A DNA stretch of 59,595 nt from a virus (lineage: Duplodnaviria; Caudoviricetes): IMG/VR virus record IMGVR_UViG_3300009183_000106, positions 1-59,595 of that record. One strand, 5' to 3'. Positions 9,032 through 34,233 of this stretch are shown here, piece after piece (the stretch's first letter is position 1; each line of letters begins with the position of its first letter). The notes under the pieces are model-generated. The model had not been told where the DNA came from and did no database searches. It was given only the letters and a program-made list of their open reading frames with translations. Both the position numbers and the translations under genes were made by a program.

Positions 9032-10372
9032 ATGAATTTAAAAATTGCAATTGCTCAGTTCTACACTTCTAACGTATCTTACGGTAAATACACAGAAGAA
9101 ATTAATAAAAAATATTGTGAAGAACAAGGGTATACATATCACGTTGAGAAAGATGATAATAAAATAAACACCGAATTGGAAGGAAGATCCGCAACATGGT
9201 ATAAACCAAAATTCATTGCTGAGGTTTTTGAAACCCATAACCCCGATTATGTTTTATTTTTAGATGCGGATGCTATTGTTTCCGACCCATCAAGAAGAAT
9301 TGAGGAGTTTATTGAAGAAGGATTTAACATTATATGTACAGAAGATTACGGTCCAAGTGTTATAAATGCTGGTGTGTTCTTATTAAAGAATAGTGATTGG
9401 ACTAAAATGATATTAAAAAAATGGTGGGATGTTTGTGATACGTTAACAGGTGGACCTAATAATGAATTAGGTTTTTATAAAACAGGTTTATGGCATGACC
9501 AAACTTGTTTTGGACATCTTATTACTAGTAGGTTAGACTCCAAAGATAATATTAAGGTTATAACTAATAAAGTTCTTAATGGTAGGATATATAAACATTC
9601 CGTTAACAACAATTTTATTTTCCATGCGTTTTCATATGGAGATCAACCATATAGAACTTTTGACCACATTTATAACACGGTCTTTAATATTAATACCGAT
9701 GAAAGAGAAAGTATGAGTAATATTGCAAAAAGATACCCAACAGACAAAGATTTTACCCACAATTATTTTAATTCAGTTTATGAAAGATATTTTTCTCCAA
9801 TCAGAGATGAAGTTAAAAAGTTTTGTGAGGTTGGTGTTGGTGGTTTTTGGGAAGAAGCAGGATGGGTTCCCGGCAATTCATTACGTGTGTGGGATGAGTA
9901 TTTTCCAAATGCTGAAATCTTAGGTTTAGATATTAATTCTTTTAACTTAACTAGTCAAGGTAAAGTTGTGGTTGATTATATTGATCAATCAAATAAAGTA
10001 CTTGTTGATGAATACGCATCAAAAATATCTGAATATGATATCATTCTTGATGATGGATCTCACGTTATGTATGATCAACAAATTACAATGTCGGCATTTT
10101 TTAAATCACTTAAGAGTGGTGGTATATTTGTGATGGAAGATCTTCACACAAGTCCTGAGGTAAGAATGCCAGAAAAGAATGCGATATGGAATTGGGGTGA
10201 CCCAACTAAGATAACAACATTAGAGATGTTGGAAAGTTTTGTTAACACAGGTAAAATTATTTCTGATTACCTATCTGAAGAAGAAAAACTTTATTTAGAA
10301 GAAAATATTAGTTCTGTGGATATTTTTACTGTGGCACCTACAAGTATAACATCTATCATCTATAAAAAATAA
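9032..10372 (+). CDS. GT34 (GMA12/MNN10-like) glycosyltransferase fused to a class I SAM-dependent (sugar O-)methyltransferase
   Basis: N-terminal WYKP, VLFLDADA, INAGVFLLKNS, HDQT; C-terminal TDK..HNY, EVGVG, GLDI, DQS, IILDDGSH, GGIFVMEDL. Confidence 0.8.
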   Translation: MNLKIAIAQFYTSNVSYGKYTEEINKKYCEEQGYTYHVEKDDNKINTELEGRSATWYKPKFIAEVFETHNPDYVLFLDADAIVSDPSRRIEEFIEEGFNIICTEDYGPSVINAGVFLLKNSDWTKMILKKWWDVCDTLTGGPNNELGFYKTGLWHDQTCFGHLITSRLDSKDNIKVITNKVLNGRIYKHSVNNNFIFHAFSYGDQPYRTFDHIYNTVFNINTDERESMSNIAKRYPTDKDFTHNYFNSVYERYFSPIRDEVKKFCEVGVGGFWEEAGWVPGNSLRVWDEYFPNAEILGLDINSFNLTSQGKVVVDYIDQSNKVLVDEYASKISEYDIILDDGSHVMYDQQITMSAFFKSLKSGGIFVMEDLHTSPEVRMPEKNAIWNWGDPTKITTLEMLESFVNTGKIISDYLSEEEKLYLEENISSVDIFTVAPTSITSIIYKK

Positions 10373-12460: not shown

Positions 12461-14155
12461 ATGAATAAAAATATAACATTAGTTACAGGTCTTTGGGATA
12501 TGGGTAGAGGTAACCTTGATGGATGGGCAAAAAGAGATTTTGAATATTATAAAACTAGATTCTTTGAGTTTTTAGAAACAGATGTACAAATGTGTATTTG
12601 GATACCTAAAGATTTGGAGGAAGAAGTTTTAAAGATACGAGGTGATAGACCAACTAAAATTTTTATAAAGAATTTAGAGGATTTTAAAACTTGGAACCCA
12701 TTTTTTAGTAAGATCCAAGAAATACGTAATACTGATAGTTGGAGAAATTTTGCGGGTTGGTTGAAAGATTCCCCACAGGCGACATTGGAATTTTATAATC
12801 CGATGATGTTCACAAAAATGTTTATGTTAAATGATTCATCAATTATAAACCCATTTAATTCTGAATATCTTTTTTGGATTGATGGTGGCTTAACAAATAC
12901 GGTTAGTTCAGGTTATTTTATTAAAGACAAAGTTTTAGATAATTTAGAGAATTATATGTTATCATTAGATAAAGAATATGTTCATATAACCTATCCTTAT
13001 GAGGCTAATGATGAAATTCATGGGTTTGAAAGAAGTGGTATGTCAAAATATTGTGGTACTGACTATGTTAATTATGTAGCAAGAGGTGGTTTCTTCGGTG
13101 GTCATAAAAATACAATCCATAATATGAATACATTATATTATGGGATAATGGAATCCACATTAAAGGATAATTTAATGGGTGCGGATGAATGTTTATTTAC
13201 AATATTATGTCATAATCACCCTGACTTAATTCATAGGTTTAAAATTGAAGGTAATGGATTGGTATGGCCGTTTTTTGAAAATTTAAAAAGTTTTGAACAA
13301 CCTATTGATGTTGAAACTAAAATAAAAAATAATGATGTTGTTGGTAGTGAAATAGGATTATATGTAATTACATTTAATTCACCAAAACAATTTGAAACTT
13401 TAATTGAGTCTATGTTGGATTATGATCCATCATTTCTAACTAAAACTAAAAAATATCTACTTAATAATTCGACAGACTTATCAACAACTGAAAGATATAT
13501 TCAACTGTGTGACCAATATGGGTTTGAACATATTAAAAAAGATAATATTGGTATAACAGGTGGTAGACAATTTATTGCAGAACATTTTAATGATCAAAAT
13601 AATTTAAGTCATTATTATTTCTTTGAGGATGATATGTTTTTCTACAATGGTTCTGAAATAACTTGTAAGAATGGATTTATTAGAAAAATAAAAAACATAT
13701 TTGACAATACTTTAAAAATTATTAAAGAAGAGAAATTTGATTTTTTAAAGTTAAACTTTACAGAATTTTATGGTAGCCATAATAAACAATGGGCTTGGTA
13801 TAATGTTCCACAATCATTTAGAGAATCCCATTGGGTAAATAACCCAAGATTACCTGAACATGGTTTAGATCATAATTCACCTAATTTAGAATTTAAACAC
13901 ATTAAATCTTACAATGGAATACCATATGCTACAGGTGAAATATACTTATGTAATTGGCCAATAGTAATGTCAAAAGAAGGTAATTATAAATGTTATCTCA
14001 AAACAAAATTTGGTATGCCTTACGAACAAACTCTTATGTCTCATTGTTACCAAGAAATGGTAAAGGGTAATATAACGGGTTCTGTGCTACTTGCAACGCC
14101 AACTGATCATAATAGATTTGATTTTTATGATGGTAGTTTAAGAAAAGAATGTTAA
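12461..14155 (+). CDS. HtrL/YibB-like glycosyltransferase domain fused to a GT-A-like domain
   Basis: ITLVTGLWDMGR, NPFNSEYLFWIDGG, GGFFGG; C-terminal NIGITGGR, YYFFEDDMF. Confidence 0.7.
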   Translation: MNKNITLVTGLWDMGRGNLDGWAKRDFEYYKTRFFEFLETDVQMCIWIPKDLEEEVLKIRGDRPTKIFIKNLEDFKTWNPFFSKIQEIRNTDSWRNFAGWLKDSPQATLEFYNPMMFTKMFMLNDSSIINPFNSEYLFWIDGGLTNTVSSGYFIKDKVLDNLENYMLSLDKEYVHITYPYEANDEIHGFERSGMSKYCGTDYVNYVARGGFFGGHKNTIHNMNTLYYGIMESTLKDNLMGADECLFTILCHNHPDLIHRFKIEGNGLVWPFFENLKSFEQPIDVETKIKNNDVVGSEIGLYVITFNSPKQFETLIESMLDYDPSFLTKTKKYLLNNSTDLSTTERYIQLCDQYGFEHIKKDNIGITGGRQFIAEHFNDQNNLSHYYFFEDDMFFYNGSEITCKNGFIRKIKNIFDNTLKIIKEEKFDFLKLNFTEFYGSHNKQWAWYNVPQSFRESHWVNNPRLPEHGLDHNSPNLEFKHIKSYNGIPYATGEIYLCNWPIVMSKEGNYKCYLKTKFGMPYEQTLMSHCYQEMVKGNITGSVLLATPTDHNRFDFYDGSLRKEC

Positions 14156-14892
14156 AGTATTTTATTACTCTTCCTTAAATTATCTTCCGCCCATAGAGGT
14201 TGAAGATTAGTATAATGACAAAGTTTATAAATTTCTTCTTCGGTATTTGCGGACGATAATGGTATTATGTGGTCTATGTGTATGTACTTACCCATTAAAT
14301 CCCAAGTCATCCCTTCGGTAAATTGGTTTTCAAGGTGTTCTTTAAGAAACTTCGGAGAACAACCTACAATATCAAACGTTTTATTTTGTTTTATAATATT
14401 GTTATTTTTTAGAAAAGTATAGATTCTACCTCTTACATTATGTGATAAACGATAAATTGGGTTATTTATTTTTTTAGTTTTTAAAAATTCATTACGTTTT
14501 TCTCTATTAATATTATTATATTTTTTATTATATTCTAAACGTTTTTCTCTATTATTATAGTAATATTTTGTGCTGAGGGTTCTGAATTTTTCTAAATTTT
14601 TTTCTTTATTTTCGTGATAATGTTTTTTAACTCTTTCTATAAGAACTTCTTTATTATTTTGATAATATTTTTTAACGTAATTAGGATTTTTTTCACGAAA
14701 TTTTTTATGATAATCGGGATTATCTATTTTCCATAATTTTAAATATGTTTTATTTTCATTTACTCTTGTTTTTGTATAAATAATTTTACATTCTTTACAA
14801 GAACTATAATAACCATCTATTTTTGATTTATCCGTGTAAAACTCACAAACCTCTTTTTCTTCTTTACATTTACTACATATCTTTGTTTGCAT
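14152..14892 (-). CDS. HNH endonuclease with N-terminal Cys4 zinc finger (homing-endonuclease-like), copy 1
   Basis: CSKC...CKEC; HIDHIIPLSSA...LCHYTNLQPLWAEDNLRKSNK. Confidence 0.85.
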   Translation of the reverse strand: MQTKICSKCKEEKEVCEFYTDKSKIDGYYSSCKECKIIYTKTRVNENKTYLKLWKIDNPDYHKKFREKNPNYVKKYYQNNKEVLIERVKKHYHENKEKNLEKFRTLSTKYYYNNREKRLEYNKKYNNINREKRNEFLKTKKINNPIYRLSHNVRGRIYTFLKNNNIIKQNKTFDIVGCSPKFLKEHLENQFTEGMTWDLMGKYIHIDHIIPLSSANTEEEIYKLCHYTNLQPLWAEDNLRKSNKIL

Positions 14893-17318: not shown

Positions 17319-20300
17319 ATGTCAAATACTAAAATTGTATTAAATAGACAGTCTGATTTAATATTGGACAACGCGGAAATTACATCACCAGTTGGTATCG
17401 TCTTAGCTGACATCGCTGGAGCTACTGATGCAATATCTGCTGAAGAATCATTAAGAGTAGCTGCGGTAGCTGCTGAAGAATCAATGAGAATAGCTGGTGA
17501 TGTTGAAGTAACTCAACTGGTAAGAAATGAACGAGATACTCGTGTCGCTGCTGTATCTACTGAAGAGTCTGCTCGTATCGCTGGTGATTTAAACCTTCAA
17601 AACCAAATCGACAATGTACTGTCTAATGTTGATGGTGCTGCTTTGGATTCATTAACGGAAATCGTTGGAGCTTTCCAATCTGCTGATGATGATTTGAATG
17701 GTGCTATCACACTTTTAGCTAACACTGCAAGTTCTGCATTGTCAACTGAAGTTGAAGCTCGTATCTCTGATGTTGACGCTGAACAAGCAAGAGCTGAATC
17801 AGCTGAAGCTGTATTGACTGCTGATTTATCTGCTGAAAGATCTGCTAGAATTCTTTCTATAGCTGCTGAAGTTGAAAAAGAAGTATCTAAAAGAATCGCT
17901 GATGTTGATGCTGAAGAGTCTCGTGCTAGCGAAGCTGAAGAAATGTTAGCTGCTGATTTATCTTCTGAAGTTGCTGCTCGTGAAGCGGCTATTTCTGCTG
18001 AGTCATCAGTTAGAAGAGAAAATGATGAGGCCGAAGAGTCTCGTGCTATCGAAGCTGAAGGTTCATTAGCTACAGTTATCGCTGCTGAACACAGTGAACA
18101 CATCGCAAACGAATTATCTATCGTTACTGCAATGGATGCTGCTGATTCATCTGAAGCATCTGCTCGTATCGCTGGTGATGCATCATTAACTGCTGATTTA
18201 GCTGCTGAAGGTGTTCGTGCTGGAAACGCTGAAGGCGTATTAACTGCTAATTTAGCTGCTGAAGGTGTTCGTGCTGGAAATGCTGAAGCTAGTTTAGCTA
18301 CTGATTTAGCTTCTGAAATCATGAACAGAGGTAATGCTATTGATAATGAGCAATCTGCAAGAATCGATGGTGACCAATCACTACAAAACCAAATTGATTT
18401 CATCACAGACAACACTGATGCTGCTGCAATTGATTCATTAACTGAAATCGTTGCTGCTTTCCAAAGTGCTGACGGAGAAATCAATGGTGCAATTACTACA
18501 TTAGCAGATGCTGCTGGTGCTAACTTGTCAACTGAGGTTGCTCGTGCTACAAGTGTTGAAGGTGTATTAACTGCTGATTTATCTACTGAAGTTGCTGCAA
18601 GAGAAGCTGCTGTTTCTATGGAAGAAGCTGCTCGTATTGCTGCTGAGTTAGTTTTAACTAATAGTTTATCTGTTGAAGTTGCTGCACGTATCGCTGATGT
18701 TGATGTTGAAGAAGCAAGAGCAATGGCTGCTGAGTTAGTTTTAACTAATGATTTATCCGCTGAAGTTGCTGCTCGTATCGCTGATGTTGATGCTGAAGAG
18801 TCTCGTGCTATGGCTGCTGAGTTAGTTTTAACTAACAACTTGTCTACAGAAATGTCTGCACGTATTGCTGACGTTGATGCTGAAGCATCTCGTGCTACTG
18901 CTGCTGAAGGTATATTAACTGCTGATTTATCAAGTGAAGTTGCTAACAGAGGAACAGCTGTAACTGCTGAAGCTTCTTACAGAGTTGCTGGAGATTTATC
19001 TCTACAAAACCAAATTGACTTCATCACAGAAAACATCGACCCAGTTGCTATCGATTCATTAACTGAAATCGTTGCTGCTTTCCAATCTGCTGATGGTGAT
19101 ATTAACGGAGCAATTACAGAATTAGCTGATGCTGCTGGTGCTAACTTGTCAACTGAAGTTGCTCGTGCTACAAGTGCTGAAGCTGTATTGACATCTGATT
19201 TATCAAGTGAAGTATCTGCAAGAATTGCTGATGTTGATGCTGAAGAGTCTAGAGCTACTGCGGCTGAGTTAGTTTTAACAAACGATTTATCTTCTGAAGT
19301 ATCAAACAGAATTGCTGACGTTGATGCTGAAGAGTCTCGTGCTACTGCTGCTGAGTTAGTTTTAACAAACAACTTGTCTACTGAAGTTTCTAACAGAATT
19401 GCTGACGTTGATGCTGAACAAGCAAGAGCTGAAAGTGCTGAAGCTGTATTGACTGCTGATTTATCAAGTGAAATGTCTGCTCGTATCGCTGATGTTGATG
19501 CTGAAGAGTCTAGAGCTATGGCTGCTGAAGATTTACTTGATGGTGACCTTCGTTCTGAAATGATGAACAGACAAATTGCTGTTGATGCTGAAGCATCTTA
19601 CCGTGTTTCAGGTGATTTGTCACTTCAAAACCAAATTGACTTCATTACATCTAACGTTGATGCTGCTGCAATCGATTCATTAACTGAAATCGTTTCTGCG
19701 TTCCAATCTGCTGATGGTGATATCAACAACGCAATCACTACATTAGCTGATGCTGCTGGTGCTAACTTGTCAACGGAAGTTGCAAGAGCTGAAAGTGCTG
19801 AAGCTGTATTGACTGCTGATTTATCAAGTGAAGTATCTAATAGAGAATCTGCTGACACTAGTTTAGCTGTTGCTTTATCTATTGAAGTGTCTAAAAGAAA
19901 TGATTTAGGACAAAGCGTTTATTCTGAAGTTTCTAACAGAACTGCTGACGTTGATGCTGAAGAATCAAGAGCTATCGCTGCTGAAGGTGTTTTAACATCA
20001 GATTTATCTTCTGAAGTTGCTAACAGAGAAGCTGCAATATCTGCTGAAGAATCAATGAGAGTTGAAGCTGACGCATCTATCGCTGCTGAATTGTCTTCTG
20101 ACATTGCTGGATTAGCTGATGTTGATGGAACAACTATCGTTCTTAACGGTGATACTAACCAAATCGAATTGGCTGACGAAGTTGCTGCTGGTGCTGGTGG
20201 AAATAGAACGTTCTTAGGTGAAATAGATATCAAAACAATCTTGAAAGTAGGTGGTGTTGATGTAATGGCTGAAATTAGTTCAGAAATTGCAAGAGCTGAA

Positions 20301-20765
20301 GCTGCTGAAGCGTCTATCGCTGAAGAATTGTCAACTGAAGTATCTTACTTAATAGCTAACACAGATTTAGGTTCAATCGATTCATTCGCTGAAATCGTTT
20401 CTGAATTGTCTAATGAGATTGCAAGAGCTGAAAGTGTTGAGGGTTCAATTGAAACTTCTGTTAACAACTTGTCAACTAACACTGAGATGTATGTAGATGA
20501 TAATAGACCTACAATGCTTGGATTCAAACAAGACCCTGATGGTGCAGTCTCAGCATTCACATGTAATGTTGAAATTGAAACACAAATTGTATTCCTTAAT
20601 GGTATAATGCAACTTGAAGACCAAGATTACACTATTGCTTCTGTTGCTGGAGCGAAAGGCGCAATGAATACTGAGGTTACATTTGCTTCTGCACCAGCAG
20701 CGACAGATAGAATCAATATCTATGGTGTTTCTAACAAGATTCGTCCATTTTTAGGAATAAATTAA
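17319..20765 (+). CDS. Long acidic Ala/Glu-rich coiled-coil fibre protein
   Basis: 29-aa repeats (EVAARIADVDAEESRATAAELVLTNDLSS) interrupted four times by LQNQID...(L/I)DSLTEIVxAFQSAD; C-terminal VFLNGIMQ...DYTI module. Confidence 0.75.
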   Translation: MSNTKIVLNRQSDLILDNAEITSPVGIVLADIAGATDAISAEESLRVAAVAAEESMRIAGDVEVTQLVRNERDTRVAAVSTEESARIAGDLNLQNQIDNVLSNVDGAALDSLTEIVGAFQSADDDLNGAITLLANTASSALSTEVEARISDVDAEQARAESAEAVLTADLSAERSARILSIAAEVEKEVSKRIADVDAEESRASEAEEMLAADLSSEVAAREAAISAESSVRRENDEAEESRAIEAEGSLATVIAAEHSEHIANELSIVTAMDAADSSEASARIAGDASLTADLAAEGVRAGNAEGVLTANLAAEGVRAGNAEASLATDLASEIMNRGNAIDNEQSARIDGDQSLQNQIDFITDNTDAAAIDSLTEIVAAFQSADGEINGAITTLADAAGANLSTEVARATSVEGVLTADLSTEVAAREAAVSMEEAARIAAELVLTNSLSVEVAARIADVDVEEARAMAAELVLTNDLSAEVAARIADVDAEESRAMAAELVLTNNLSTEMSARIADVDAEASRATAAEGILTADLSSEVANRGTAVTAEASYRVAGDLSLQNQIDFITENIDPVAIDSLTEIVAAFQSADGDINGAITELADAAGANLSTEVARATSAEAVLTSDLSSEVSARIADVDAEESRATAAELVLTNDLSSEVSNRIADVDAEESRATAAELVLTNNLSTEVSNRIADVDAEQARAESAEAVLTADLSSEMSARIADVDAEESRAMAAEDLLDGDLRSEMMNRQIAVDAEASYRVSGDLSLQNQIDFITSNVDAAAIDSLTEIVSAFQSADGDINNAITTLADAAGANLSTEVARAESAEAVLTADLSSEVSNRESADTSLAVALSIEVSKRNDLGQSVYSEVSNRTADVDAEESRAIAAEGVLTSDLSSEVANREAAISAEESMRVEADASIAAELSSDIAGLADVDGTTIVLNGDTNQIELADEVAAGAGGNRTFLGEIDIKTILKVGGVDVMAEISSEIARAEAAEASIAEELSTEVSYLIANTDLGSIDSFAEIVSELSNEIARAESVEGSIETSVNNLSTNTEMYVDDNRPTMLGFKQDPDGAVSAFTCNVEIETQIVFLNGIMQLEDQDYTIASVAGAKGAMNTEVTFASAPAATDRINIYGVSNKIRPFLGIN

Positions 20766-20836: not shown

Positions 20837-21211
20837 ATGATAGAAGTACCTTTAAAAATAGAAATTAAAGAAAGTCCAAATAAAGGACTTGGTGTGTTTG
20901 CGAAGGAAAAAATCTTAAAAGATGAAATCATTGAAATATGTCCTTTAATTAAATTAGATGTACCTCATAATTCAGATGTTTTAGATGACTACAGATTCTA
21001 TTATCCAAGAAAAACGGCAAAAGATTATGTAGTTGTGTTAGGGTATGGGTCTTTGTATAATCATAACGACCAAAACAACGCTGATTGGAGAGATGGAAAA
21101 CCAATGACATTTGAATTTTTTGCAACTAAGGACATTGAACTTGGTGAAGAAATTTATTTAAAATACGGTGGACCAGAATACTTCAAACAAAGGCCAAAAG
21201 ATTGGTTGTAA
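20837..21211 (+). CDS. Stand-alone SET-domain protein-lysine methyltransferase
   Basis: SPNKGLGVFA, GYGSLYNH...NA, FFATKDIELGEEIYLKYG. Confidence 0.9.
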   Translation: MIEVPLKIEIKESPNKGLGVFAKEKILKDEIIEICPLIKLDVPHNSDVLDDYRFYYPRKTAKDYVVVLGYGSLYNHNDQNNADWRDGKPMTFEFFATKDIELGEEIYLKYGGPEYFKQRPKDWL

Positions 21212-21294: not shown

Positions 21295-22830
21295 ATGACA
21301 CAGAATAAACTTAGAGTGAAAGGTGTTAATAGTGGTGGTGGAGTTATTTTACCACAATTAATCACTTTCACAAAAGCGGATTACGGAACTGATGTTGATG
21401 TGATATCACAATACTTAACGTTGAAACGTGGGAATAATGCTGGACTGTTTAACACTAATGAAGGGGCAACATATAATGGTACTTTCGAAGGCGGTAAAAA
21501 TCATCTATGGTGTGTGGCAAATGAAGGGGACTTTACGTATGATAGTTATGTGGATTTGTGGAATACATTTGACCCATCAACAATTGACATAACTCAATTA
21601 CAATCTGATTACGAGAATGGTGGTAACCTATTTGATTTTAGTGACAAATCAATGGTTCCTTGGGGTAGGGTTCATAATAGTATGCCTCTTGAAATGTTAA
21701 ACAAAGAAATGATTATGTTGGATGTACTTGATGGTAAATTCTATAAAGTAAAATTCACTCAATGGACTAATGGAGGTGCTGGTGGTGGATTATCTTATAC
21801 TAGACAATTGTTTTATTCAGTACCGGAGGTTCTAGTGGTGAACCTAACTCTACCATTTAATGCTAATGATGGAGATACAATTGATGGACAATTCGGGTCT
21901 TCAACAGGGTATTATAAAGTTGAATATTGGGATGGGACATCTGAGGTATTAGGTGATGGTAAAGTATACGATTCAATTTCAATGAAAGCCGATGGAATAT
22001 CATCATTCTATAAACAATTCAATAGTTCAGACTTAAACAATGGACAAATAGTAATAACTAGTTGCACTTCATATGGGTCACCATCTGGAGACATTATTTT
22101 TGTCGCATTAACTAATCCATGTTATGGTAATTTTGATGTGAATAGTCTAACTAACTTAACTTATTTACATGTTCAGAATAATGAATCACTAACATCACTT
22201 AACGTATCTAGCTTAAGAAACTTAACGTATTTAGATATTAATGATAACCAATTAACTGAGATTTTATTTCCTCAGTTAATTCCATTGGGTGGGGTTATGA
22301 TGATTCCAGAGTTAAAAAGTTTACAGGTTATTGGTAACCCATTACTAACAACACTTATTGGTTTAAATAATTCTAACTTAACAAGTTTAAAAATTGAAAA
22401 TAACAACTCATTAACATCTCTTGATGTGAGTGGTTTATCTAACTTACCAAGTTTAGAGATCAATAGTAACACATCATTAACATCACTTGATGTAACTGGT
22501 TTAATTAACGCAACACTCTTAAGAGTTTATGATAACACATCATTAACATCACTTATTGGTTTAACTGATTTAACTAACTTAACAAGTTTATTTGTTTATT
22601 ATACATCATTAACATCACTTGATATAACTGGTTTAAGTAATTTAATATATTTACAAGCTCGTGAAAATCCATTTGGCGGTACTGGTTATGACAATTTGTT
22701 AATTGAATTGGATACTAACGGTACTTCAGGAGGAACTTTCGCAGCTGGTGGTAGTACGTTTAATAGAACATCTGCTAGTAACGACGCGTTTGCTAATTTG
22801 ATTGACAAAGGTTGGTCTTTGGATATGTGA
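21295..22830 (+). CDS. Leucine-rich-repeat protein 1 with N-terminal non-LRR domain
   Basis: About 22-aa LRRs (LTSLDVSGLSNLPSLEINSN); N-cap ITSC...SGDI and C-cap RTSASN...GW shared with ORF 23090. Confidence 0.85.
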   Translation: MTQNKLRVKGVNSGGGVILPQLITFTKADYGTDVDVISQYLTLKRGNNAGLFNTNEGATYNGTFEGGKNHLWCVANEGDFTYDSYVDLWNTFDPSTIDITQLQSDYENGGNLFDFSDKSMVPWGRVHNSMPLEMLNKEMIMLDVLDGKFYKVKFTQWTNGGAGGGLSYTRQLFYSVPEVLVVNLTLPFNANDGDTIDGQFGSSTGYYKVEYWDGTSEVLGDGKVYDSISMKADGISSFYKQFNSSDLNNGQIVITSCTSYGSPSGDIIFVALTNPCYGNFDVNSLTNLTYLHVQNNESLTSLNVSSLRNLTYLDINDNQLTEILFPQLIPLGGVMMIPELKSLQVIGNPLLTTLIGLNNSNLTSLKIENNNSLTSLDVSGLSNLPSLEINSNTSLTSLDVTGLINATLLRVYDNTSLTSLIGLTDLTNLTSLFVYYTSLTSLDITGLSNLIYLQARENPFGGTGYDNLLIELDTNGTSGGTFAAGGSTFNRTSASNDAFANLIDKGWSLDM

Positions 22831-23089: not shown

Positions 23090-25153
23090 ATGGCAACATT
23101 CATAACATCCAAATCAGTTGGAGAAACAATCTACATTTCTGTTCATGCAACTGGATATTGGAAATATAATCACGATGGAAGTGATTCAAGTGTATTTGTA
23201 AGTGGGGAACAAACAATCTCAGTAACAAACGTAAACGGTGAATTCACAATTATATCATGTGATTCAGATGGTAATGTAAGTGGGAATATAACTTATTTGG
23301 ATTTATATAATAACCAATTAACATCATTTGACGGAACTGGTTTAACAGGTTTAACTATTTTGGGTTTATCTACTAACCAATTAACATCATTTGACGGAAC
23401 TGGTTTAACAGGTTTAACTTATTTGTATTTACAGAGTAACCAATTAACATCATTTGATGGAACTGGTTTATCTAGTTTAACTACTTTGGAATTAACTAGT
23501 AACCTCTTAACATCATTTGACGGAACTGGTTTATCTAGTTTAACTGAGTTGCATTTAAGTGGACCTAGAGGTGGTGGTGGGACACTAACCTCAGTTAGTA
23601 ACCTTCCATCTAGTTTAACTAACTTGTATTTACAAACTAACCAATTAACATCATTTGACGGAACTGATTTATCTAGTTTAATTACTTTGAATTTAAATAA
23701 TAACCAATTAACATCATTTGACGGAACTGATTTATCTAGTTTAACTGGTTTGTATTTAACAGGTAACTTATTAACATCATTTGACGGAACTGGGTTATCT
23801 AGTTTAACTGATTTACGTTTACAAGGTAACCAATTAACATCATTTGACGGAACTGGATTATCTAGTTTAACTAGTTTGGGTTTACAAATTAACCAATTAA
23901 CATCATTTGACGGAACTGGTTTATCTAGTTTAACTGATTTGGAGTTACAAAATAACCTCTTAACATCATTTGACGGAACTGGTTTATCTGGTTTAACTTA
24001 TTTGGGTTTAGGTAGTAATCAATTAACATCATTTGATGGAACTGGATTATCTAGTTTAACTAGTTTGAATTTAATGGGACTTAAAAGTGGTGGTACATTA
24101 ACTTCGGTTAGTAACTTACCATCAAGTTTAACTAATTTACTTTTAAATAGTAATCAATTAACTTCATTTGACGGAACTGGTTTATCTAGTTTAACTTATT
24201 TGGGTTTAGATAATAACCAATTAACATCATTGGATGGGACCGGATTATCTGGTTTAATTGAGTTGTATTTACAATATAACCAATTAACATCATTTGACGG
24301 AACTGGATTATTTAGTTTAACTACTTTGGTTTTAAATAGTAACCAATTAACATCATTTGACGGAACTGATTTATCTGATTTAACTGTTTTAAATTTAGAT
24401 AGTAACCAATTAACATCATTTGACGGAACAGGTTTATCTAGTTTAACTGGGTTGAATTTACAGAGTAACCAATTAACATCATTTGATGGAACTGGTTTAT
24501 CTAGTTTAACTAGTTTGAAGTTATATGGTAACCCACTTACAACATTTATTGGTGGGGACATGGGTCAAATGAGTGAGTTGAATTTAAATAATTTACAATT
24601 AACATCATTTGATGGAACTGGATTATCTAGTTTAACTTCTTTGGAATTAAATAGTAACCAATTAACATCAATTGATGTGACTGGTTTATCAAGTTTAACT
24701 TATTTGGTTTTAAATAATAACCAATTAACATCATTGGATGTGACTGGTTTATCTGGTTTAACTTCATTAAATTTAAGTGGTAACCAATTAACACCATCTG
24801 TAAACAATCAAGTCTTACATCAACTTAATCAAAATGGAATAATTGAAGGTAGTTTTCAATCTAGTGGTGGAAGAACATCAGCAAGTAACGCTGATTATGA
24901 TAACCTAGTAAGTTTAGGTTGGTATTTTGAAGGTTTAGATTTAATCATTGTTGGAAGTGGTAAACTAAGAGTAAAAGGAGTTAATAGTGGTGGAACTCCT
25001 CCACCCCCAACACCACAACCATGGGATGGCGGAACGATTTATAACATTGGTGCTGTCGTAACCCTTTCCAGACAAACTTGGAATTGTATCCAATATGCTC
25101 CAGCTGGTTACGGTCCATTTGGTGGATATATTGATGTTTATTGGACTTTATAA
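23090..25153 (+). CDS. Leucine-rich-repeat protein 2 (about 24 x 21-aa LRR) with C-terminal CBM5/12-like module
   Basis: NQLTSFDGTGLSSLTxLxLxx repeats; tail WDGGTIYNIGAVV....TWNC...P...W after a Pro linker. Confidence 0.85.
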   Translation: MATFITSKSVGETIYISVHATGYWKYNHDGSDSSVFVSGEQTISVTNVNGEFTIISCDSDGNVSGNITYLDLYNNQLTSFDGTGLTGLTILGLSTNQLTSFDGTGLTGLTYLYLQSNQLTSFDGTGLSSLTTLELTSNLLTSFDGTGLSSLTELHLSGPRGGGGTLTSVSNLPSSLTNLYLQTNQLTSFDGTDLSSLITLNLNNNQLTSFDGTDLSSLTGLYLTGNLLTSFDGTGLSSLTDLRLQGNQLTSFDGTGLSSLTSLGLQINQLTSFDGTGLSSLTDLELQNNLLTSFDGTGLSGLTYLGLGSNQLTSFDGTGLSSLTSLNLMGLKSGGTLTSVSNLPSSLTNLLLNSNQLTSFDGTGLSSLTYLGLDNNQLTSLDGTGLSGLIELYLQYNQLTSFDGTGLFSLTTLVLNSNQLTSFDGTDLSDLTVLNLDSNQLTSFDGTGLSSLTGLNLQSNQLTSFDGTGLSSLTSLKLYGNPLTTFIGGDMGQMSELNLNNLQLTSFDGTGLSSLTSLELNSNQLTSIDVTGLSSLTYLVLNNNQLTSLDVTGLSGLTSLNLSGNQLTPSVNNQVLHQLNQNGIIEGSFQSSGGRTSASNADYDNLVSLGWYFEGLDLIIVGSGKLRVKGVNSGGTPPPPTPQPWDGGTIYNIGAVVTLSRQTWNCIQYAPAGYGPFGGYIDVYWTL
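23290..24795 (+). repeat. 63-bp coding tandem repeat (LRR array)
   Basis: Near-identical core aaccaattaacatcatttgacggaactggtttatctagtttaact. Confidence 0.95.
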
Positions 25154-25169
25154 TTAATATTAACACAAC

Positions 25170-25200
25170 AAAAGAAGGGACTCAATCGAGTCCCTTTTTT
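25170..25200. terminator. Bidirectional intrinsic terminator between convergent genes
   Basis: aaaagaagggactc-aatc-gagtccctttttt. Confidence 0.8.
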
Positions 25201-25218
25201 ATATCATAGAAATGATAT

Positions 25219-26418
25219 TTATTTTAAGTTTTTATACAAATTTGTTTTCGGATTATATTCCAAACCATCATTACCCCCATTAAACAAGTTATAAATTAAT
25301 TTATCATATGTTTTAACCAATTTCATATTATCCGCATGATATCTCATCAATACCTTATCGTTACGTTCATTATAGGAATCAATATTTTTATCATGCTCAG
25401 TTAATATATAATCCAATTGTTTAGCACCATCAACGGTATCTGAACCTTCATAATAATAACCCAAATCTTTACACATCGGAGCGTTATGTAATACAGGATA
25501 TCCCATATACGCAGCATCCAAATAAATGTAATTTAATGGATTTAATATTTGATGACAGATTAATACGTCAATATGTTGGGTTAATATAAATGCTGTTTGG
25601 TATCTACTTTCAGATGTTATTTTATTGTCTTTAAATAAATCAAAAGTCCTAATCATACCCATGAACTCCTTGTGTTTGGCAACTTTCTCGGAATTGGTCA
25701 ACATTAACTTATCTATATGTTCTTTACCAATCTCACCTCGATAAGACTCTTCGGAAATCATTGCTGGTATAAGACAAAATTTAACCATGTTAAGGTTCGG
25801 TTCCATCACACCCAATCGTTTCTTTTCTTTACCGATGTTGTATCGATAATCTTTTTTAAATGAACCCTTTTTAAATCCTTTTTCAATATCAACAAGAGCC
25901 TCTAGTAGATATTGGTGATGCCATATGAAAGGAACGATAAACGCTTTAGACCGATATAGGGTATGATAATAACCACAATTAGTTTCATGTTGTTGAGGTA
26001 TATACCATATTTCATCATATGCTTCATCGAATTGATATGCTTTATTCTCATCTTCTTTAAATAGAATGTTCTCAGCACTTAGAATATAATTGTTACCGCA
26101 TTTGTATGCAATTATTTTTTTATTCGGTTTTGATTTAAACTTCTCAATTTCAGATTTATTAATCTGAGCTCCCATAACGATTAACAAATCCATGTCTTCG
26201 TAGTGATCCCTAAAGTTACAAATGTTAACATCGGTTAAATAACTTGGTTTAGTCGACCAATCAACATCGATTGTGTTTAATAAAGTTATTTCATATTTCT
26301 CATTCGAGTTTTTTAACAACTTAGTTAACATCAATATGTTTTGTTTAATTCCGTTTGTCCAAATCGACTCTTTATTATCTTTTAGACCGAGTGTAATTCC
26401 AATTTTTAAATTTTTCAT
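25219..26418 (-). CDS. DUF2827-like protein (probable GT-B-fold glycosyltransferase-like)
   Basis: IGIT....SIWTNGIKQN, MEPNLNMVK, HQILNPLNYIYLDAAYMGYPVLHNA, LGYYY. Confidence 0.7.
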   Translation of the reverse strand: MKNLKIGITLGLKDNKESIWTNGIKQNILMLTKLLKNSNEKYEITLLNTIDVDWSTKPSYLTDVNICNFRDHYEDMDLLIVMGAQINKSEIEKFKSKPNKKIIAYKCGNNYILSAENILFKEDENKAYQFDEAYDEIWYIPQQHETNCGYYHTLYRSKAFIVPFIWHHQYLLEALVDIEKGFKKGSFKKDYRYNIGKEKKRLGVMEPNLNMVKFCLIPAMISEESYRGEIGKEHIDKLMLTNSEKVAKHKEFMGMIRTFDLFKDNKITSESRYQTAFILTQHIDVLICHQILNPLNYIYLDAAYMGYPVLHNAPMCKDLGYYYEGSDTVDGAKQLDYILTEHDKNIDSYNERNDKVLMRYHADNMKLVKTYDKLIYNLFNGGNDGLEYNPKTNLYKNLK

Positions 26419-26990
26419 TTTGTTATATTTACGTGTTTGTTTATAAATTTTAATACTACTTCATCTTTTATTTCTTGCGTCGGAGCATGTACCCACAACC
26501 ATAAAAATGATGTCTCTAAGTCCGACATCTCTTTTCGTTTTAATAAAATAACCTCCATTATGTTTTCCACATCTTCACCTTCCAATTCGACATCGATATT
26601 TAACTCAACACATATCATATATAACTCAAGTAGGTTGTTATCTGCATATGATTCCTTGGCTTTAATATATGTATCTAACATTTCTTCAGAATCTATTTTA
26701 TCAGGATGCGTAACTTTTACGATGTCCCTATAGATTTTTTTCATCTTACGTTTGGTGTGATCATTGACGTTTTTAATTTTGGGTTCCTTTTCTACCTTAT
26801 CTTTAGGTTCGGTAGGTATTTCAGGTTCAGGTGACGACACACCCAACTCTTTTTTCTTATCCTCTATCGATTTTAAAAACTCGCTACGGTTATCTCCAAT
26901 TACTTCCCTTTTATATTCGTCATCAATCAACAAGAAATTATATTCCTGTAGTAGTTTTTTAATCTCTAATTTTTTTATTTTATCACTCAT
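26415..26990 (-). CDS. J-domain (DnaJ-like) protein
   Basis: KKIYRDIVKVTHPDK with HPD motif. Confidence 0.75.
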   Translation of the reverse strand: MSDKIKKLEIKKLLQEYNFLLIDDEYKREVIGDNRSEFLKSIEDKKKELGVSSPEPEIPTEPKDKVEKEPKIKNVNDHTKRKMKKIYRDIVKVTHPDKIDSEEMLDTYIKAKESYADNNLLELYMICVELNIDVELEGEDVENIMEVILLKRKEMSDLETSFLWLWVHAPTQEIKDEVVLKFINKHVNITK

Positions 26991-28046: not shown

Positions 28047-30830
28047 GTGATAACACAAGAAGAAATTAAAAGTTTCCTAGAAGGGAACGATCCAGAGGAA
28101 CATATTGTTTCCGTAGAGTTTGATTACGTATCGGACCACATTTTCAAAATTAAAGAAGTACCTGGTAAAGGTAAAATTATACAACAAGATTCACTAATAG
28201 CGTTTGCTTGGGTTGGTGATCTACGTGGTCTTAACTTTTACGAAGGGTCCAAAGCATTGCAAAAACAGGCTATGGGCAAATACGGCATCCTCATAGAAAA
28301 ACTCCGAACAGATGGTAATGAACGATTAGAAGAAGGATTAACTTTTATAGTTAAATCCATTAAGGGGTATCGATCATTAACTCAATTTTTCCGTGATGGT
28401 GGAATTGACCCCTGGGGTGAAAAGGCAAAAGATAAAATCTTGATGGTCTCTCCTGTAGAACAATACCTCATCTCAAAGGAGAAACGATTATTCAAAGGGT
28501 TTGATGAATACAATGACATTACTAGATTTGTATTTGACCTTGAGACGACCTCATTGGAACCAAAGGATGGTCGTATCTTTATGATTGGAATGAAAACAAA
28601 TAAAGGATTCCAAAAAGTTATTGAATGTTCAAACGAAGATGAAGAGCGTGCGGGACTTGTGGAATTCTTCAAAACAATAGATCAACTTAAACCATCAATC
28701 ATTGCGGGTTATAACTCAGCAAACTTTGACTGGTTTTGGATATTCGAAAGATGTAAGGCATTACATTTAGATATTAAGAAAATTGCAATCTCAATGAACG
28801 CAAAGAAGACGATATCTCAAAAAGAATCAATGTTAAAATTAGCAAATGAGGTTGAGAGATTTAATCAGGTACAAATGTGGGGTTATAACGTAATTGATAT
28901 TATTCATTCAGTTCGTAGATCACAAGCAATCAACTCAAACATTAAAGAGGCCGGTTTGAAGTATATTACCAAGTTTATTGATGCCGAAGCAAAAGATCGT
29001 ATCTATATTGACCACACAAGTATTGGTTCAATGTATGCAGAAAAAGATGAGTATTGGTTAAATGTAGAAAATGGTAATTACAAAAAGGTTGGTATTGACC
29101 CAAAGGTAGATGAGATATGCGTAAGACGGGGGGATATTTACCTTAAAACAACGGGGGACGACATAGTTGAGCGTTATCTTGATGATGACCTTGAGGAAAC
29201 GTTGATTGTGGATGACGAGTTCAACCAAGCAACATTTCTATTGGCATCGTTGGTTCCAACAACATATGAGAGAGCATCCACAATTGGAACAGCGACTCTT
29301 TGGAAAATGGTAATGTTGGCATGGTCATATAAACATGGATTAGCAATACCACAGAAAAAAGAAAAAAGAAACTTTGTTGGTGGATTATCTAGATTATTAA
29401 AAGTTGGGTATTCTAAGAACGTATTAAAGCTTGATTACTCCTCACTATACCCATCCATTCAGTTAGTTCACGACGTGTTCCCTGAATGTGATATAACGGG
29501 AGCAATGAAGGGGTTATTAACCTATTTCCGTAACTCTCGTATTATGTATAAGAACTTGGCAGCAGAATATAAAACCATAGATAAGAAGAAATCAACATCA
29601 TACGATCGAAAACAATTGCCGATTAAGATTTTTATTAACGCATTCTTCGGATCATTATCCGCTCCACACGTATTTCCGTGGGGCGACATTGATAAGGGAG
29701 AACAAATAACAACAACGGGAAGACAATATTTAAGACAAATGGTTAAATTTTTTACAAAACGAGGTTATACCGCATCAGTGTTAGATACTGACGGTGTTAA
29801 CTTTTCATTACCGGAAGGTGGTGTTGATGACCGTGTTTATATTGGTAAAGGAAATAACTCTTTAATTGTAAAAGGTAAAACATATATCGGTTATGATGCT
29901 GATGTTGCAGAGTTTAACGATATTTTTATGAAGGGGGAGATGTTTTTAGATTGTGATGGGACTTGGGATTCTTGTATTAACTTGGCTCGTAAGAACTATG
30001 CGACGATGGAACACAATGGTAAAGTCAAATTTACTGGTAATAGTATTAAGTCCAAAAAAATGCCAAAATACATTGAGAAGTTTTTGGATAAGGGTATTAA
30101 ACAATTACTTAGAGGTGAGGGAAAAGAATTTATTGATTGGTATTATGAATATATTCAAAAGATATTTGACCTAAGAGTTCCGTTGGCAGAGATTGCATCA
30201 AAAGCAAGAGTTAAAATAAGTGTTGAGGATTACATTAAACGTAGTAAACAAACAACAAAGTCGGGTAGTTTAATGTCAAGACAGGCTCATATGGAACTTA
30301 TTATTAGAGATGGGATACAATCAAATCTTGGTGATACGATTCTTTATGTGAATAACGGAACAAAGGCATCTCACGGAGACGTTCAAAAAGTTAATGAAAA
30401 AATGACTAAGAAGGAAGTGGATTTATTTTTTGATATTAATGGTAGTAAACCTATTTTGGGGTCTCACGTCCAATTAAATTGTTATCGTATTGAGCCGTCC
30501 GATTTAGAAAATAACCCTGAGATGTTGGGAGAATATAACATACAAAGAGCCATTGCAACATTCAATAAACGAGTGGAACCATTGTTAATCGTATTTGATA
30601 ATGAGGTTAGAGATACGTTATTAGTTAAAAATCCGGAGGATAGAAGTTTTTATACTTCAGGACAATGTGTGTTAACAAATGGCAACCCATTCAATCCTGA
30701 AGACCAAGATGATTTGGTTGATCTATTAACCATAACCCCAGAAGAATTATCTTTTTGGGATAATGTTGGTATTAGTCCTGACCATATATATGACTTAGCA
30801 GAGCCTGGATGGGAAGAACATATTAACTAA
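28047..30830 (+). CDS. polB: Family B DNA polymerase with 3'-5' exonuclease
   Basis: Exo FDLETT and GYNSANFDW; motif A LDYSSLYPS; motif B KIFINAFFG; motif C DTDG; KNYA; GTG start. Confidence 0.95.
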   Translation: MITQEEIKSFLEGNDPEEHIVSVEFDYVSDHIFKIKEVPGKGKIIQQDSLIAFAWVGDLRGLNFYEGSKALQKQAMGKYGILIEKLRTDGNERLEEGLTFIVKSIKGYRSLTQFFRDGGIDPWGEKAKDKILMVSPVEQYLISKEKRLFKGFDEYNDITRFVFDLETTSLEPKDGRIFMIGMKTNKGFQKVIECSNEDEERAGLVEFFKTIDQLKPSIIAGYNSANFDWFWIFERCKALHLDIKKIAISMNAKKTISQKESMLKLANEVERFNQVQMWGYNVIDIIHSVRRSQAINSNIKEAGLKYITKFIDAEAKDRIYIDHTSIGSMYAEKDEYWLNVENGNYKKVGIDPKVDEICVRRGDIYLKTTGDDIVERYLDDDLEETLIVDDEFNQATFLLASLVPTTYERASTIGTATLWKMVMLAWSYKHGLAIPQKKEKRNFVGGLSRLLKVGYSKNVLKLDYSSLYPSIQLVHDVFPECDITGAMKGLLTYFRNSRIMYKNLAAEYKTIDKKKSTSYDRKQLPIKIFINAFFGSLSAPHVFPWGDIDKGEQITTTGRQYLRQMVKFFTKRGYTASVLDTDGVNFSLPEGGVDDRVYIGKGNNSLIVKGKTYIGYDADVAEFNDIFMKGEMFLDCDGTWDSCINLARKNYATMEHNGKVKFTGNSIKSKKMPKYIEKFLDKGIKQLLRGEGKEFIDWYYEYIQKIFDLRVPLAEIASKARVKISVEDYIKRSKQTTKSGSLMSRQAHMELIIRDGIQSNLGDTILYVNNGTKASHGDVQKVNEKMTKKEVDLFFDINGSKPILGSHVQLNCYRIEPSDLENNPEMLGEYNIQRAIATFNKRVEPLLIVFDNEVRDTLLVKNPEDRSFYTSGQCVLTNGNPFNPEDQDDLVDLLTITPEELSFWDNVGISPDHIYDLAEPGWEEHIN

Positions 30831-30883: not shown

Positions 30884-31039
30884 ATGGGACGACCTAAAAA
30901 AGAAGAAAAGGATAAAAAAATTAAAGTTGGGATTTGTATGGATAGACAACTTTATAAAAAAGTTATGGAAAATGGTGGTAAAGTGTCCCAAATAATAGAA
31001 AGTATAGTTAGAGAATATTATGGATACAAAGATTTGTAG
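30884..31039 (+). CDS. 51-aa ribbon-helix-helix-like protein upstream of HNH copy 2
   Basis: MGRPKK...KIKVGICMDRQLY...KVSQIIESIV; start 6 nt after TATTTAT (30871-30877). Confidence 0.65.
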   Translation: MGRPKKEEKDKKIKVGICMDRQLYKKVMENGGKVSQIIESIVREYYGYKDL

Positions 31040-31646
31040 TAAATGTAAGGAGAAAAAAAATATTTGTGAGTTTGGTAAAGATAAAACAAGAAAGGGTGGA
31101 TATAGTTATTTATGTAAACCTTGTTTAATTGAAAAAAGTTTCACTTATAAAAAAAATAATCGTGAAAAGGTTTTAAATGGTTATAAGGACTATCACAAAA
31201 AAAATGGTGAAAAAATAAAGAAGTCAAGAAAAGAATACGTAAAAAATAATCAGGATAAAATATTGGAATATAAGAAAAAATATTATTCGGAAAATAAAGA
31301 ATATTTTTTAAATTGGGAAAGAGAAAAACGAAAAAGTGATCCATTATTTAAACTATCCGGTAATATGCGTAAAAGAATTAATTCCTTTGTTAAGTTATCT
31401 AAATTTGATAAAAAAACCAAAACATTTAATCTTATTGGGTGCAATCCAATATCTTTAAAAGATTTTTTAGAGAAAAAATTCATAGAGGGAATGTGTTGGG
31501 GTAATTATGGGGAATGGCATATTGACCATATAATTCCATTATCTTCGGCAAAAACAGAAGAAGAGATCTATAAATTATGTCATTATAGTAACTTACAACC
31601 ATTATGGGCAATTGATAATTTAAAAAAAGGGTCTAAAATACTTTAG
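31020..31646 (+). CDS. HNH endonuclease with N-terminal zinc finger, copy 2
   Basis: CSKC...CKPC; WHIDHIIPLSSA...LCHYSNLQPLWAIDNLKKGSK. Confidence 0.85.
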   Translation: MDTKICSKCKEKKNICEFGKDKTRKGGYSYLCKPCLIEKSFTYKKNNREKVLNGYKDYHKKNGEKIKKSRKEYVKNNQDKILEYKKKYYSENKEYFLNWEREKRKSDPLFKLSGNMRKRINSFVKLSKFDKKTKTFNLIGCNPISLKDFLEKKFIEGMCWGNYGEWHIDHIIPLSSAKTEEEIYKLCHYSNLQPLWAIDNLKKGSKIL

Positions 31647-33144: not shown

Positions 33145-34233
33145 TTATTTTGTTCTTAACAAATATAATTCGTTAACAAATTTCCAATTAACGTGATTCC
33201 AAAAATTATTTATATATTCATCACGTTTATTACGATATTTTAGATAGTATGCGTGTTCCCACACATCAAGACCTAACAATGGATAACCACCATCCTTAAC
33301 GACATTCATTAATGGATTATCTTGGTTAGGTGTGGAAATAATTTTTAATCTATTATTTTTAGTTAAAATTAACCAAGCCCACCCTGATCCAAATTGATCT
33401 TTAGCAACCTGATTAAATTCGTCTTTTAATTTTTTAATATTTCCGTATTGTTTTGTGATTTTTTCATATACTCCACCACTTGGTTTTTGTTTAGTTGGGC
33501 TTAACATTTTCCAAAAAAGTGCGTGGTTAAAGGCTCCACCTGCATTATTTCTAACCTTAGTGTCATATTTACTAATGTTTTTAACTATGTCTTCCAATTC
33601 AACCTCACCTTTTTTATTTGCAAGAGCATCGTTTAATTTTTTAACATAACCTTTATAGTGTTTGTTGTAATGAACGTCCATAGTTTCAGGATCCACAAAT
33701 TGTTTCATAGATGAATATGAATACGGTAATTTTTCAATACCAATTTTTTTCATCTCCATTAAAAAATCTTTCTTAATATTTTGTTTTTCTGAAATTAAAA
33801 TTTGTTCATTAATAAGATTAATTTTATTGTTAATACCTTTTAATCCTTCAAAAACAAATTCATTAAATTGTGGATATTCTTCTTCAAACATTTTGATTAG
33901 TCGACCAGCGTAGGCATTTGCTTCATCTTCATTCTGACCCCCAATGTTTGGGCCTTGTTCTCTTTTAAGAATATCTCTTTGATAAGAATGAACCCACTCA
34001 TGAGCCAATGTTCTCATTATATCACGATTTAATCTACCATCAGTTAAGACTTTAATACCATCTTTAGGATGTTGACTACCTGTAGTCATATTACTTGTTT
34101 TTTTCCCCAAAAATTGAATAGTAATATCATCCTTTAATTGATAATTCCTTTGTAAGAATTTAATAAAGGTGTGAATTAACTCGTTATACTTTGGATCAAG
34201 TCCTGAATCTATACGTTTGATACTTACTTTCAT
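33145..34233 (-). CDS. sodA: Mn/Fe superoxide dismutase with N-terminal HExxH metallopeptidase-like domain
   Basis: LPYSY, HYNKH, NNAGGAFNH, FGSGWAWL, NQDNP, DVWEHAYY (GG and Q signatures favour Mn type); N-terminal TLAHEWVH...EDEANA. Confidence 0.9.
   Translation of the reverse strand: MKVSIKRIDSGLDPKYNELIHTFIKFLQRNYQLKDDITIQFLGKKTSNMTTGSQHPKDGIKVLTDGRLNRDIMRTLAHEWVHSYQRDILKREQGPNIGGQNEDEANAYAGRLIKMFEEEYPQFNEFVFEGLKGINNKINLINEQILISEKQNIKKDFLMEMKKIGIEKLPYSYSSMKQFVDPETMDVHYNKHYKGYVKKLNDALANKKGEVELEDIVKNISKYDTKVRNNAGGAFNHALFWKMLSPTKQKPSGGVYEKITKQYGNIKKLKDEFNQVAKDQFGSGWAWLILTKNNRLKIISTPNQDNPLMNVVKDGGYPLLGLDVWEHAYYLKYRNKRDEYINNFWNHVNWKFVNELYLLRTK

Follow-up and report, generated by a model that had tools for sequence, protein, structure and literature searches.

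Phages are known to vary their binding proteins by swapping fibre tips and by mutagenesis of C-type-lectin folds through diversity-generating retroelements (DGRs). In lampreys, variable lymphocyte receptors (VLRs) are assembled somatically from donor cassettes of leucine-rich repeats (LRRs) into an incomplete germline gene, and their diversity lies on the concave face. TAL effectors read DNA with helical repeats that carry two variable residues each. Here we describe an LRR protein of 687 amino acids, encoded by an open reading frame (ORF) at 23090-25153 (+ strand, stop codon included) of the IMG/VR virus record IMGVR_UViG_3300009183_000106. The whole record, 59,595 bases and an estimated 20% or so of the genome, was analysed and is called the window below. 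The virus is, judging from its gene content, a large (jumbo), uncultured myovirus of lake water. We consider it likely that the protein is an inherited LRR binding protein, probably an adhesin displayed on the virion, which evolves by duplication of repeats and modules and by diversifying selection on four residues per repeat unit.

Like the lamprey receptors, the phage protein has a predicted LRR solenoid with its diversity on residues of the concave face. However, the ORF is complete, its caps are not Cys-rich (there are 2 Cys in 687 amino acids) and, apart from one further intact gene, the window has no other LRR DNA. The label "VLR-like", given to the array in a first-pass annotation made from the sequence by a model, is therefore apt as an analogy of fold and variable face, but not as a mechanism, since the ORF is intact and inherited and no donor cassettes were seen in the window. 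As in TAL effectors, the DNA repeats are near-identical save for a few hypervariable residues that set specificity there, although the fold differs. The nearest described case is the tandem LRR locus of Flavobacterium psychrophilum, which has up to 19 tandem LRR surface proteins of 2-14 repeats each (PMC10392669). According to the sections of that paper considered here, which use TAL effectors as a benchmark, the two systems have in common LRRs of the bacterial type, some 22 residues long, in which several hypervariable positions lie on the same side of the solenoid, numbers of genes and repeats that vary between strains, conserved flanks and signs of recombination. However, the F. psychrophilum proteins are placed on the bacterial cell surface and carry a signal peptide and a type 9 secretion signal (PMC10392669), whereas the phage protein has neither. 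It also differs from them in its own N-terminal domain, a tag of the GKLRVKG type, a CBM5/12 tail and modules that can be fused in one ORF.

In fungal NLR immune receptors, the WD, ANK and TPR repeats are highly conserved internally, vary in number and are under positive selection at a few sites of the binding surface (PMC4986451). Variation in repeat number and selection at a few binding-surface positions are both found in the phage family. The fungal repeats were recognized with a threshold of 85% identity over 100 amino acids (PMC4986451), while the mean pairwise amino-acid identity between the phage units is lower, being 0.67 for 22 units and 0.75 for 18 core units. Fold and host also differ, no LRR motifs are reported in the sections of that study considered here, and no ongoing concerted evolution was seen in the phage array. 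Among phages, LRR domains occur in presumed host-recognition proteins, namely the DUF7941 proteins of Goslar (bioRxiv 10.64898/2026.04.21.720040) and a tail-module protein of a vibriophage (PMC10945359). These resemble our protein in combining LRR and carbohydrate-binding domains, with a proposed role in host recognition, but the sections of both sources considered here do not describe near-identical repeats or hypervariable positions, and there is no sequence relationship. Proteins diversified by DGRs, such as Mtd of a Bordetella phage (PMC5006420), are likewise phage binders that vary at a few codons with an AAY-like pattern. However, these have a C-type lectin fold, whereas our protein has an LRR fold without adenine specificity, and its paralogous repeats differ by fixed changes that stay the same from sample to sample. 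In the full-text literature on LRRs with DGRs, phage receptor-binding proteins and tail fibres, Flavobacterium phages and jumbo phages, no description of the family was found.

The ORF scored well above the Pfam cut-off of 27 bits with both LRR_4 (191.4 bits, E = 9.2e-58) and LRR_8 (146.8 bits, E = 1.5e-43). Its LRR array covers 23288-24820 (+), as delimited by Tandem Repeats Finder (a single array at 23289-24797, period 63, 23.6 copies), by segmentation and by the structural model. There are 24 units, of which 22 are regular (63 nucleotides, 21 amino acids) and two are irregular, with 25 amino acids at 23540-23614 and 24 at 24056-24127. Amino-acid entropy reaches 2.99, 2.90, 2.50 and 2.21 bits at repeat positions 3, 5, 7 and 8, while none of the other 17 positions exceeds 1.51 bits. 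The four residues at these positions form a signature that is different in each of the 22 regular units. The array with four hypervariable codons per repeat that the first-pass annotation had proposed is thus present, and the strings it quoted (YDYN, IGST, YYQS, TETS, DRQG, SGQI and EYQY) match the sequence exactly. In an AlphaFold2 single-sequence model, residues from about 70 to 570 form a solenoid, mostly with pLDDT of 80-95, and each unit contributes one strand that covers repeat positions 3-8; the N- and C-terminal domains have low confidence. Foldseek matched the model to SHOC2, InlA, InlJ, Leptospira LIC10831 and TLRs (E from 1e-10 to 1e-13). The four variable residues of each unit fall on this strand and are taken as the solvent-exposed ones of the concave beta-sheet, which agrees with their earlier assignment to the LRR face.

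The rest of the unit is a conserved scaffold. Mean nucleotide identity in the scaffold is 0.85 (22 units) or 0.91 (18 core units), while the variable codons have only 0.50. The mismatch among synonymous codons is 0.129, while 0.559 would be expected from the codon usage of the window. TTG is found at repeat position 4 in 18 of 22 units, whereas 83 of the 84 Leu codons at positions 1, 6, 11 and 19 are TTA (Fisher p = 7.6e-17). Similarly, ACT is used at positions 2 and 17 and ACA at position 12, and the scaffold retains AAC, GAC, GGA and TCT contrary to the preference of the genome. Since synonymous codons, often rare ones, are kept position by position, the units descend from one 63-nucleotide ancestor. 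The scaffold had been called frozen, and its synonymous conservation does go far beyond codon bias, but the word overstates an identity of 0.85-0.91 and a proportion of synonymous differences (pS) of 0.20-0.23, which is above zero.

Codons ending in T dominate the variable positions, as had been noticed before. The pattern NNT occurs in 71 of 88 variable codons, while 44.5 are expected from the amino acids and the background codon usage, and none of 200,000 simulations reached 71. The variable residues are rich in Y, N, D, S and G, Asn being the commonest (19/88), a composition that would suit a binder of the cell or particle surface as well as one of intracellular proteins. With T at the third base of so many variable codons beside scrambled first and second bases, gene conversion is excluded as the source of the pattern. 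We ascribe the excess to an ancestral codon similar to AAT, AGT or GAT, whose third base would have been inherited unaltered while selection changed the first and second. An alternative offered in the first-pass annotation, T-ending bias with gene conversion and positive selection, is thus close to the data in its bias and its selection, but not in its gene conversion.

The variable codons have changed faster than the synonymous sites of the scaffold. By the Nei-Gojobori method, the proportion of non-synonymous differences (pN) in the variable codons is 0.566 and pS in the 17 scaffold codons is 0.234, a ratio of 2.4 (2.8 with the 18 core units). Substitutions were also counted by parsimony on a FastTree tree of the units and compared with the scaffold synonymous rate per site. 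At codons 3, 5, 7 and 8 there were 19, 18, 16 and 13 non-synonymous changes, and 1, 0, 2 and 0 synonymous ones, so that these codons ran at 2.1-3.3 times the scaffold synonymous rate among the window units (Poisson p from 1.1e-5 to 0.012). Ten related viral loci (L001-L010) were available for comparison. When the 29 units of L001 were added to the 22 of the window, the ratio rose to 2.7-3.8 at the same codons (51 units, p from 1.6e-10 to 4.4e-6). The rate ratio never exceeded 1.45 at the other 17 codons. The per-codon check proposed in the first-pass annotation thus gave an excess of non-synonymous change, 2.1- to 3.8-fold, at exactly the four predicted codons. We read this as strong diversifying selection on the four codons, whose non-synonymous changes outpace the synonymous ones of the scaffold by a factor of 2-4.

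The relatives show how the scaffold came to be so uniform. Window and L001 agree in their scaffold codons; scaffold pS amounts to 0.199 among the units of the window, to 0.173 among those of L001 and to 0.186 when the two are compared. These equal values within arrays and between genomes argue against genome-specific or ongoing homogenisation. Scaffold pS climbs to 0.43-0.56 between the window and the more distant L003, L006 and L007, so the scaffold appears frozen by recency and not by constraint at the DNA level, a candidate explanation that was rejected on these values. Variable-codon pN is 0.56-0.74 in all comparisons, at or near saturation. All 29 signatures of L001 are distinct, as are those of the window, and none is common to both, which leaves the shuffling of cassettes from a common library of units unsupported. 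Divergence between the window and L001 is a mosaic (24192-26418 of the window was compared with 28047-30830): pS is 0.15 in the DUF2827 gene, with 98% amino-acid identity, 0.76 in the family B DNA polymerase (PolB) and 0.9 in the ORF at 26415. The low value in DUF2827 beside that of PolB indicates a recent exchange, between otherwise diverged phages, of a segment that starts at the 3' end of the LRR gene and includes DUF2827. Arrays are stable between records. L001 and L002 differ at 1 of 7792 bases, and this one is 3 bases away from the end of a contig; among L003, L004 and L005 there are 0-2 differences; and L007, L008 and L009 differ by 5-15 in 12,654 bases, none of them in the repeats.

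The LRR gene belongs to a cassette of variable content. The order in the window and in L003-L009 is a fibre gene, one or more LRR genes and DUF2827, and the cassette between the fibre-like gene and DUF2827 is followed, after DUF2827, by a J-domain-like gene. Its content ranges from one gene of 224 amino acids with a single module (N-domain, 3-5 LRRs and C-cap) in L007-L009, through two single-module LRR genes of 242 amino acids in L003-L005, a 600-amino-acid LRR gene and another in L006, and the LRR genes of 511 and 687 amino acids in the window, to one ORF of 1569 amino acids (from the first Met) with six modules in L001 and L002. The number of LRR units per module ranges from about 2 to 24 across the relatives.

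Outside the array, several parts of the 687-amino-acid protein are also found in relatives. The N-terminal domain (amino acids 1-66, 23090-23287, +; pLDDT below 50 in the single-sequence model) is kept in relatives with the motif WKYNH. Behind the array there is a C-terminal cap region at 24794-24949 (+), a helix at amino acids 569-582 followed by a conserved stretch that ends in GW, which is common to the relatives and to the upstream LRR gene. It is followed by the conserved tag GSGKLRVKGVNSGG at 24953-24994 (+), a Pro/Thr-rich linker at 24995-25021 (+) and a CBM5/12-like domain in the last 43 residues (amino acids 645-687, 25022-25150, +). The homologous domain scores above the CBM_5_12 (PF02839) cut-off in four of five relatives scanned (27.4-33.2 bits; the fifth reaches 25.9). 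One of the positive cases comes from L010, where an open frame of 74 codons (stop to stop) holds only tag and CBM. The tag, GKLR[VI]KG in general form, recurs in other proteins of the cassette. It precedes linker and CBM in the 687-amino-acid protein, stands at the C-terminal end of the short LRR proteins of L003 and L007, and is found at the N-terminus of the window ORF at 21295, of a 718-amino-acid protein in L006 and of an 849-amino-acid protein in L010; one L010 protein that bears it is of another repeat type. The two window copies, at 21307 and 24962, differ at synonymous bases, which indicates that conservation acts on the protein sequence, and the tag may serve as a peptide for docking.

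The favoured history may be outlined as follows. The repeats descend by amplification from a single 63-nucleotide unit. Diversifying selection would then have fixed point mutations of the ordinary kind in codons 3, 5, 7 and 8, at their first and second bases, while everything else in the unit, down to the third base of these codons, would stay as inherited. Such a history would yield the NNT pattern without a retroelement, and recombination between near-identical scaffolds could change the number of repeats and modules. As a product of the cassette that also holds the neighbouring fibre gene, the protein may be exposed on the virion and may attach to a variable surface of the host or of particles, with tag and CBM as the constant mounting or anchor part and the LRR face as the variable reader. 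Several observations weigh against this reading or limit it. The neutral yardstick of the selection test is the synonymous sites of the scaffold, and a test within the four codons alone has too few synonymous sites and low power (binomial p = 0.08-0.6). No structural-protein family matched the LRR protein, and the sheath gene is 13 kb away. In the window copy, the CBM_5_12 match has 20.1 bits over half the profile, below the gathering score of 26.2. The array bears no sign of ongoing homogenisation, and "recent" applies relative to the rest of the genome only. Moreover, the view of populations is limited to fragmentary Logan contigs, no second assembly of the window's own array was found to confirm the order of units, and the record, as about 20% of the genome, leaves room for a reverse transcriptase (RT) elsewhere.

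The alternatives differ in what they make of the variable codons and of the place where the protein works. A DGR had been suggested in the first-pass annotation; in that case an RT would copy a template with AAT at the four codons and miswrite its adenines into each repeat. The NNT excess, the frequency of Asn and the incompleteness of the record agree with it. DGRs are recognized by an RT, a nearby template repeat and adenine-specific differences (PMC5006420). The substitution spectrum does not have the last of these, as the 16 scaffold adenines per unit are not more variable than other bases (non-consensus fraction A 0.082, C 0.119, G 0.117, T 0.068; Mann-Whitney p = 0.65). Furthermore, the NNT pattern does not hold for 17 of the 88 variable codons, and in 13 the residue is Q, E or K, none of which can arise from AAY. 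The reverse transcriptase profile PF00078 matched 0/6 records, namely the window and five related ones that measure 62-106 kb; completeness ranges from 20% to 63% in this set, and two of the relatives reach the upper value. Blastn of three units detected no template-like copy in the window outside the two LRR genes, in line with what the first-pass annotation had itself stated for the window. Outside the ORF, only the upstream coding LRR gene matched at E < 0.05 (66-80% identity), and the remainder were chance matches of at most 26 nucleotides. The variation is spread over 24 paralogous units instead of one C-terminal variable region, and independent assemblies of relatives yield identical arrays. 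Nor is there an adenine bias among the differences in related lake contigs, though this is weak evidence. The DGR origin is contradicted by these data, and the near-negligible chance that we leave to it is owed to the record being a fragment. A targeted mutator of broader definition, either a DGR-like element in the unsequenced 80% or an unknown process, that would rewrite the first and second bases of four codons per unit seems very improbable to us; if it were true, the phage would gain a multi-site binding repertoire of VLR scale on an LRR scaffold.

The four positions could also be unconstrained and saturated, without any selection for diversity, in a scaffold kept uniform by gene conversion or codon bias. 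Variable-codon pN is indeed similar in every comparison and looks saturated, and the test within the four codons alone is not significant. However, neutral sites cannot outpace synonymous sites one or two bases away, yet the third base is T in 71/88 variable codons, and conversion tracts cannot spare the first and second bases while they homogenise the third base and the intervening 3-nucleotide Leu codons. Codon bias predicts the mismatch of 0.559 and not the 0.129 found, nor does it predict rare codons kept by position, and homogenisation is not ongoing, as the equal scaffold pS within arrays and between genomes indicates. We regard this explanation as improbable. An artefact of short-read metagenome assembly, with a chimeric or mis-ordered array, might be feared from a repetitive array with conserved stretches of 45 nucleotides and from related sequences in lake runs that are broken into contigs of 100-300 nucleotides with many joints. 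Nevertheless, the frame is intact across 24 units, each signature is unique, the arrays of relatives were recovered identically in two or three separate records and mis-ordering would not produce the per-codon pattern, so that an artefact is hardly credible. Diversifying selection would be expected equally if the LRR face captured or decoyed variable host proteins, such as defence sensors, inside the cell during infection, since an arms race with host proteins would drive it as well. The lack of a signal peptide and of a structural family match in the LRR protein and its non-structural neighbours (SET, PolB and J-domain-like) would suit such an intracellular binder. However, the C-terminal CBM5/12 carbohydrate-binding domain, sub-threshold in the window copy, and the position of the gene beside a long fibre gene and glycosyltransferase-like genes, maintained in relatives, weigh against it, and we give the intracellular role a small, though not trivial, chance.

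The same organisation is found in a wider family. A protein search gave 2511 proteins at E <= 1e-10 among 7999 scored candidates, the closest being metagenome proteins of 378-1174 amino acids. Repeat statistics were taken from the first 66 by id of 120 listed homologues (489 repeats), in which the same four positions have 2.9-3.7 bits and four other pattern-free positions have 1.2-1.6 bits. Among these 66, the WKYNH motif of the N-domain was present in 51, the tag in 43 and the CBM motif in 9. In bacterial genomes there were only distant relatives consisting of LRRs alone, with 29-40% identity (three Bacteroidota and one Gemmatimonadota metagenome-assembled genome), and in phage records a single short match to Tenacibaculum phage PTm1, over 8% of the query. 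From the distant bacterial matches, Bacteroidota would be no more than a guess for the host. A search of metagenome runs matched Logan contigs from lake and freshwater metagenomes, with a share of words of 0.13 or less; four lake runs gave pieces of 100-300 nucleotides with many joints, whose uneven cover carries no weight.

The family would thus be a third route to varied binding proteins in phages, used by abundant freshwater jumbo phages: an LRR solenoid of near-identical units in which selection rewrites four surface residues, with the number of modules running from one (224 amino acids) to six (1569 amino acids). A bacterial LRR surface-protein locus and the immune receptors of fungi are described as evolving under the same regime, which therefore appears to recur in three very unlike settings. 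These phage proteins are natural binders of the "consensus-scaffold" type. As each near-identical unit has a four-residue signature of its own, they lend themselves directly to tests of how specificity is written into LRR surfaces, and from the conserved tag and CBM tail one may learn how such modules are attached to a virion.

The window genes that mark a large myovirus are those for tail sheath (1113 amino acids), tail tube and baseplate hub, for a family B DNA polymerase, an SNF2 helicase, a SET-domain protein and a superoxide dismutase fusion, together with a cluster of glycosyltransferase-like genes. The left part of the cassette begins with a long repetitive protein of 1148 amino acids (17319-20765, +), a homologue of which is directly 5' of the LRR gene or genes in relatives. 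We call it fibre-like from its repeats and context only; it had no PDB match by sequence, and its Atlas leads to clusters of phage tail fibres are weak (scores 0.78-0.88, all below 0.9). A SET-domain protein of 124 amino acids (20837-21211, +; PF00856, E = 1.3e-12) lies between the fibre gene and the LRR genes, and its homologue in L006 has 76% identity. The upstream paralogous LRR protein (21295-22830, +, 511 amino acids; ORF, repeat and Pfam calls) consists of the N-terminal tag, a domain of about 270 amino acids, LRRs of 22 amino acids (66-nucleotide array at 22373-22645) and the same type of C-cap. On the right-hand side, the DUF2827 gene (25219-26418, -; E = 1.6e-98) is the conserved border of the cassette. 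It is convergent with the LRR gene, and a GC-rich hairpin with T-runs at 25175-25196, terminator-like in sequence, lies between the two. The adjoining protein of 191 amino acids (26415-26990, -) has a sub-threshold DnaJ match (E = 0.0062) around a stretch containing HPD.

Some further genes were found outside the cassette. A protein of 1526 amino acids (3021-7601, +) has about 1000 residues of Thr/Pro-rich 14-amino-acid repeats of the type TPTNTPTLT[KQ]TLTP. They are encoded at about 3573-6797 with a period of 42 nucleotides and some 54 copies, and Cys-rich domains lie on both flanks, giving the protein a mucin-like appearance. Directly 3' of this gene there are glycosyltransferase-family matches (7766-9013 and 9032-10372) and an HtrL_YibB match (12461-14155), and the position of these genes suggests that the mucin-like product is a heavily glycosylated surface protein of the phage. 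Two paralogous genes of the HNH/endonuclease VII-like type, one beside the glycosyltransferase cluster (14152-14892, -) and the other beside PolB (31020-31646, +), probably encode homing endonucleases. The Fe/Mn superoxide dismutase (33145-34233, -) has both Pfam domains and an N-terminal extension of about 160 amino acids without a family match. In the tail sheath protein (38067-41408, +), the sheath domains occupy only residues from about 822 to 1111, and the N-terminal 800 or so amino acids have no family match.

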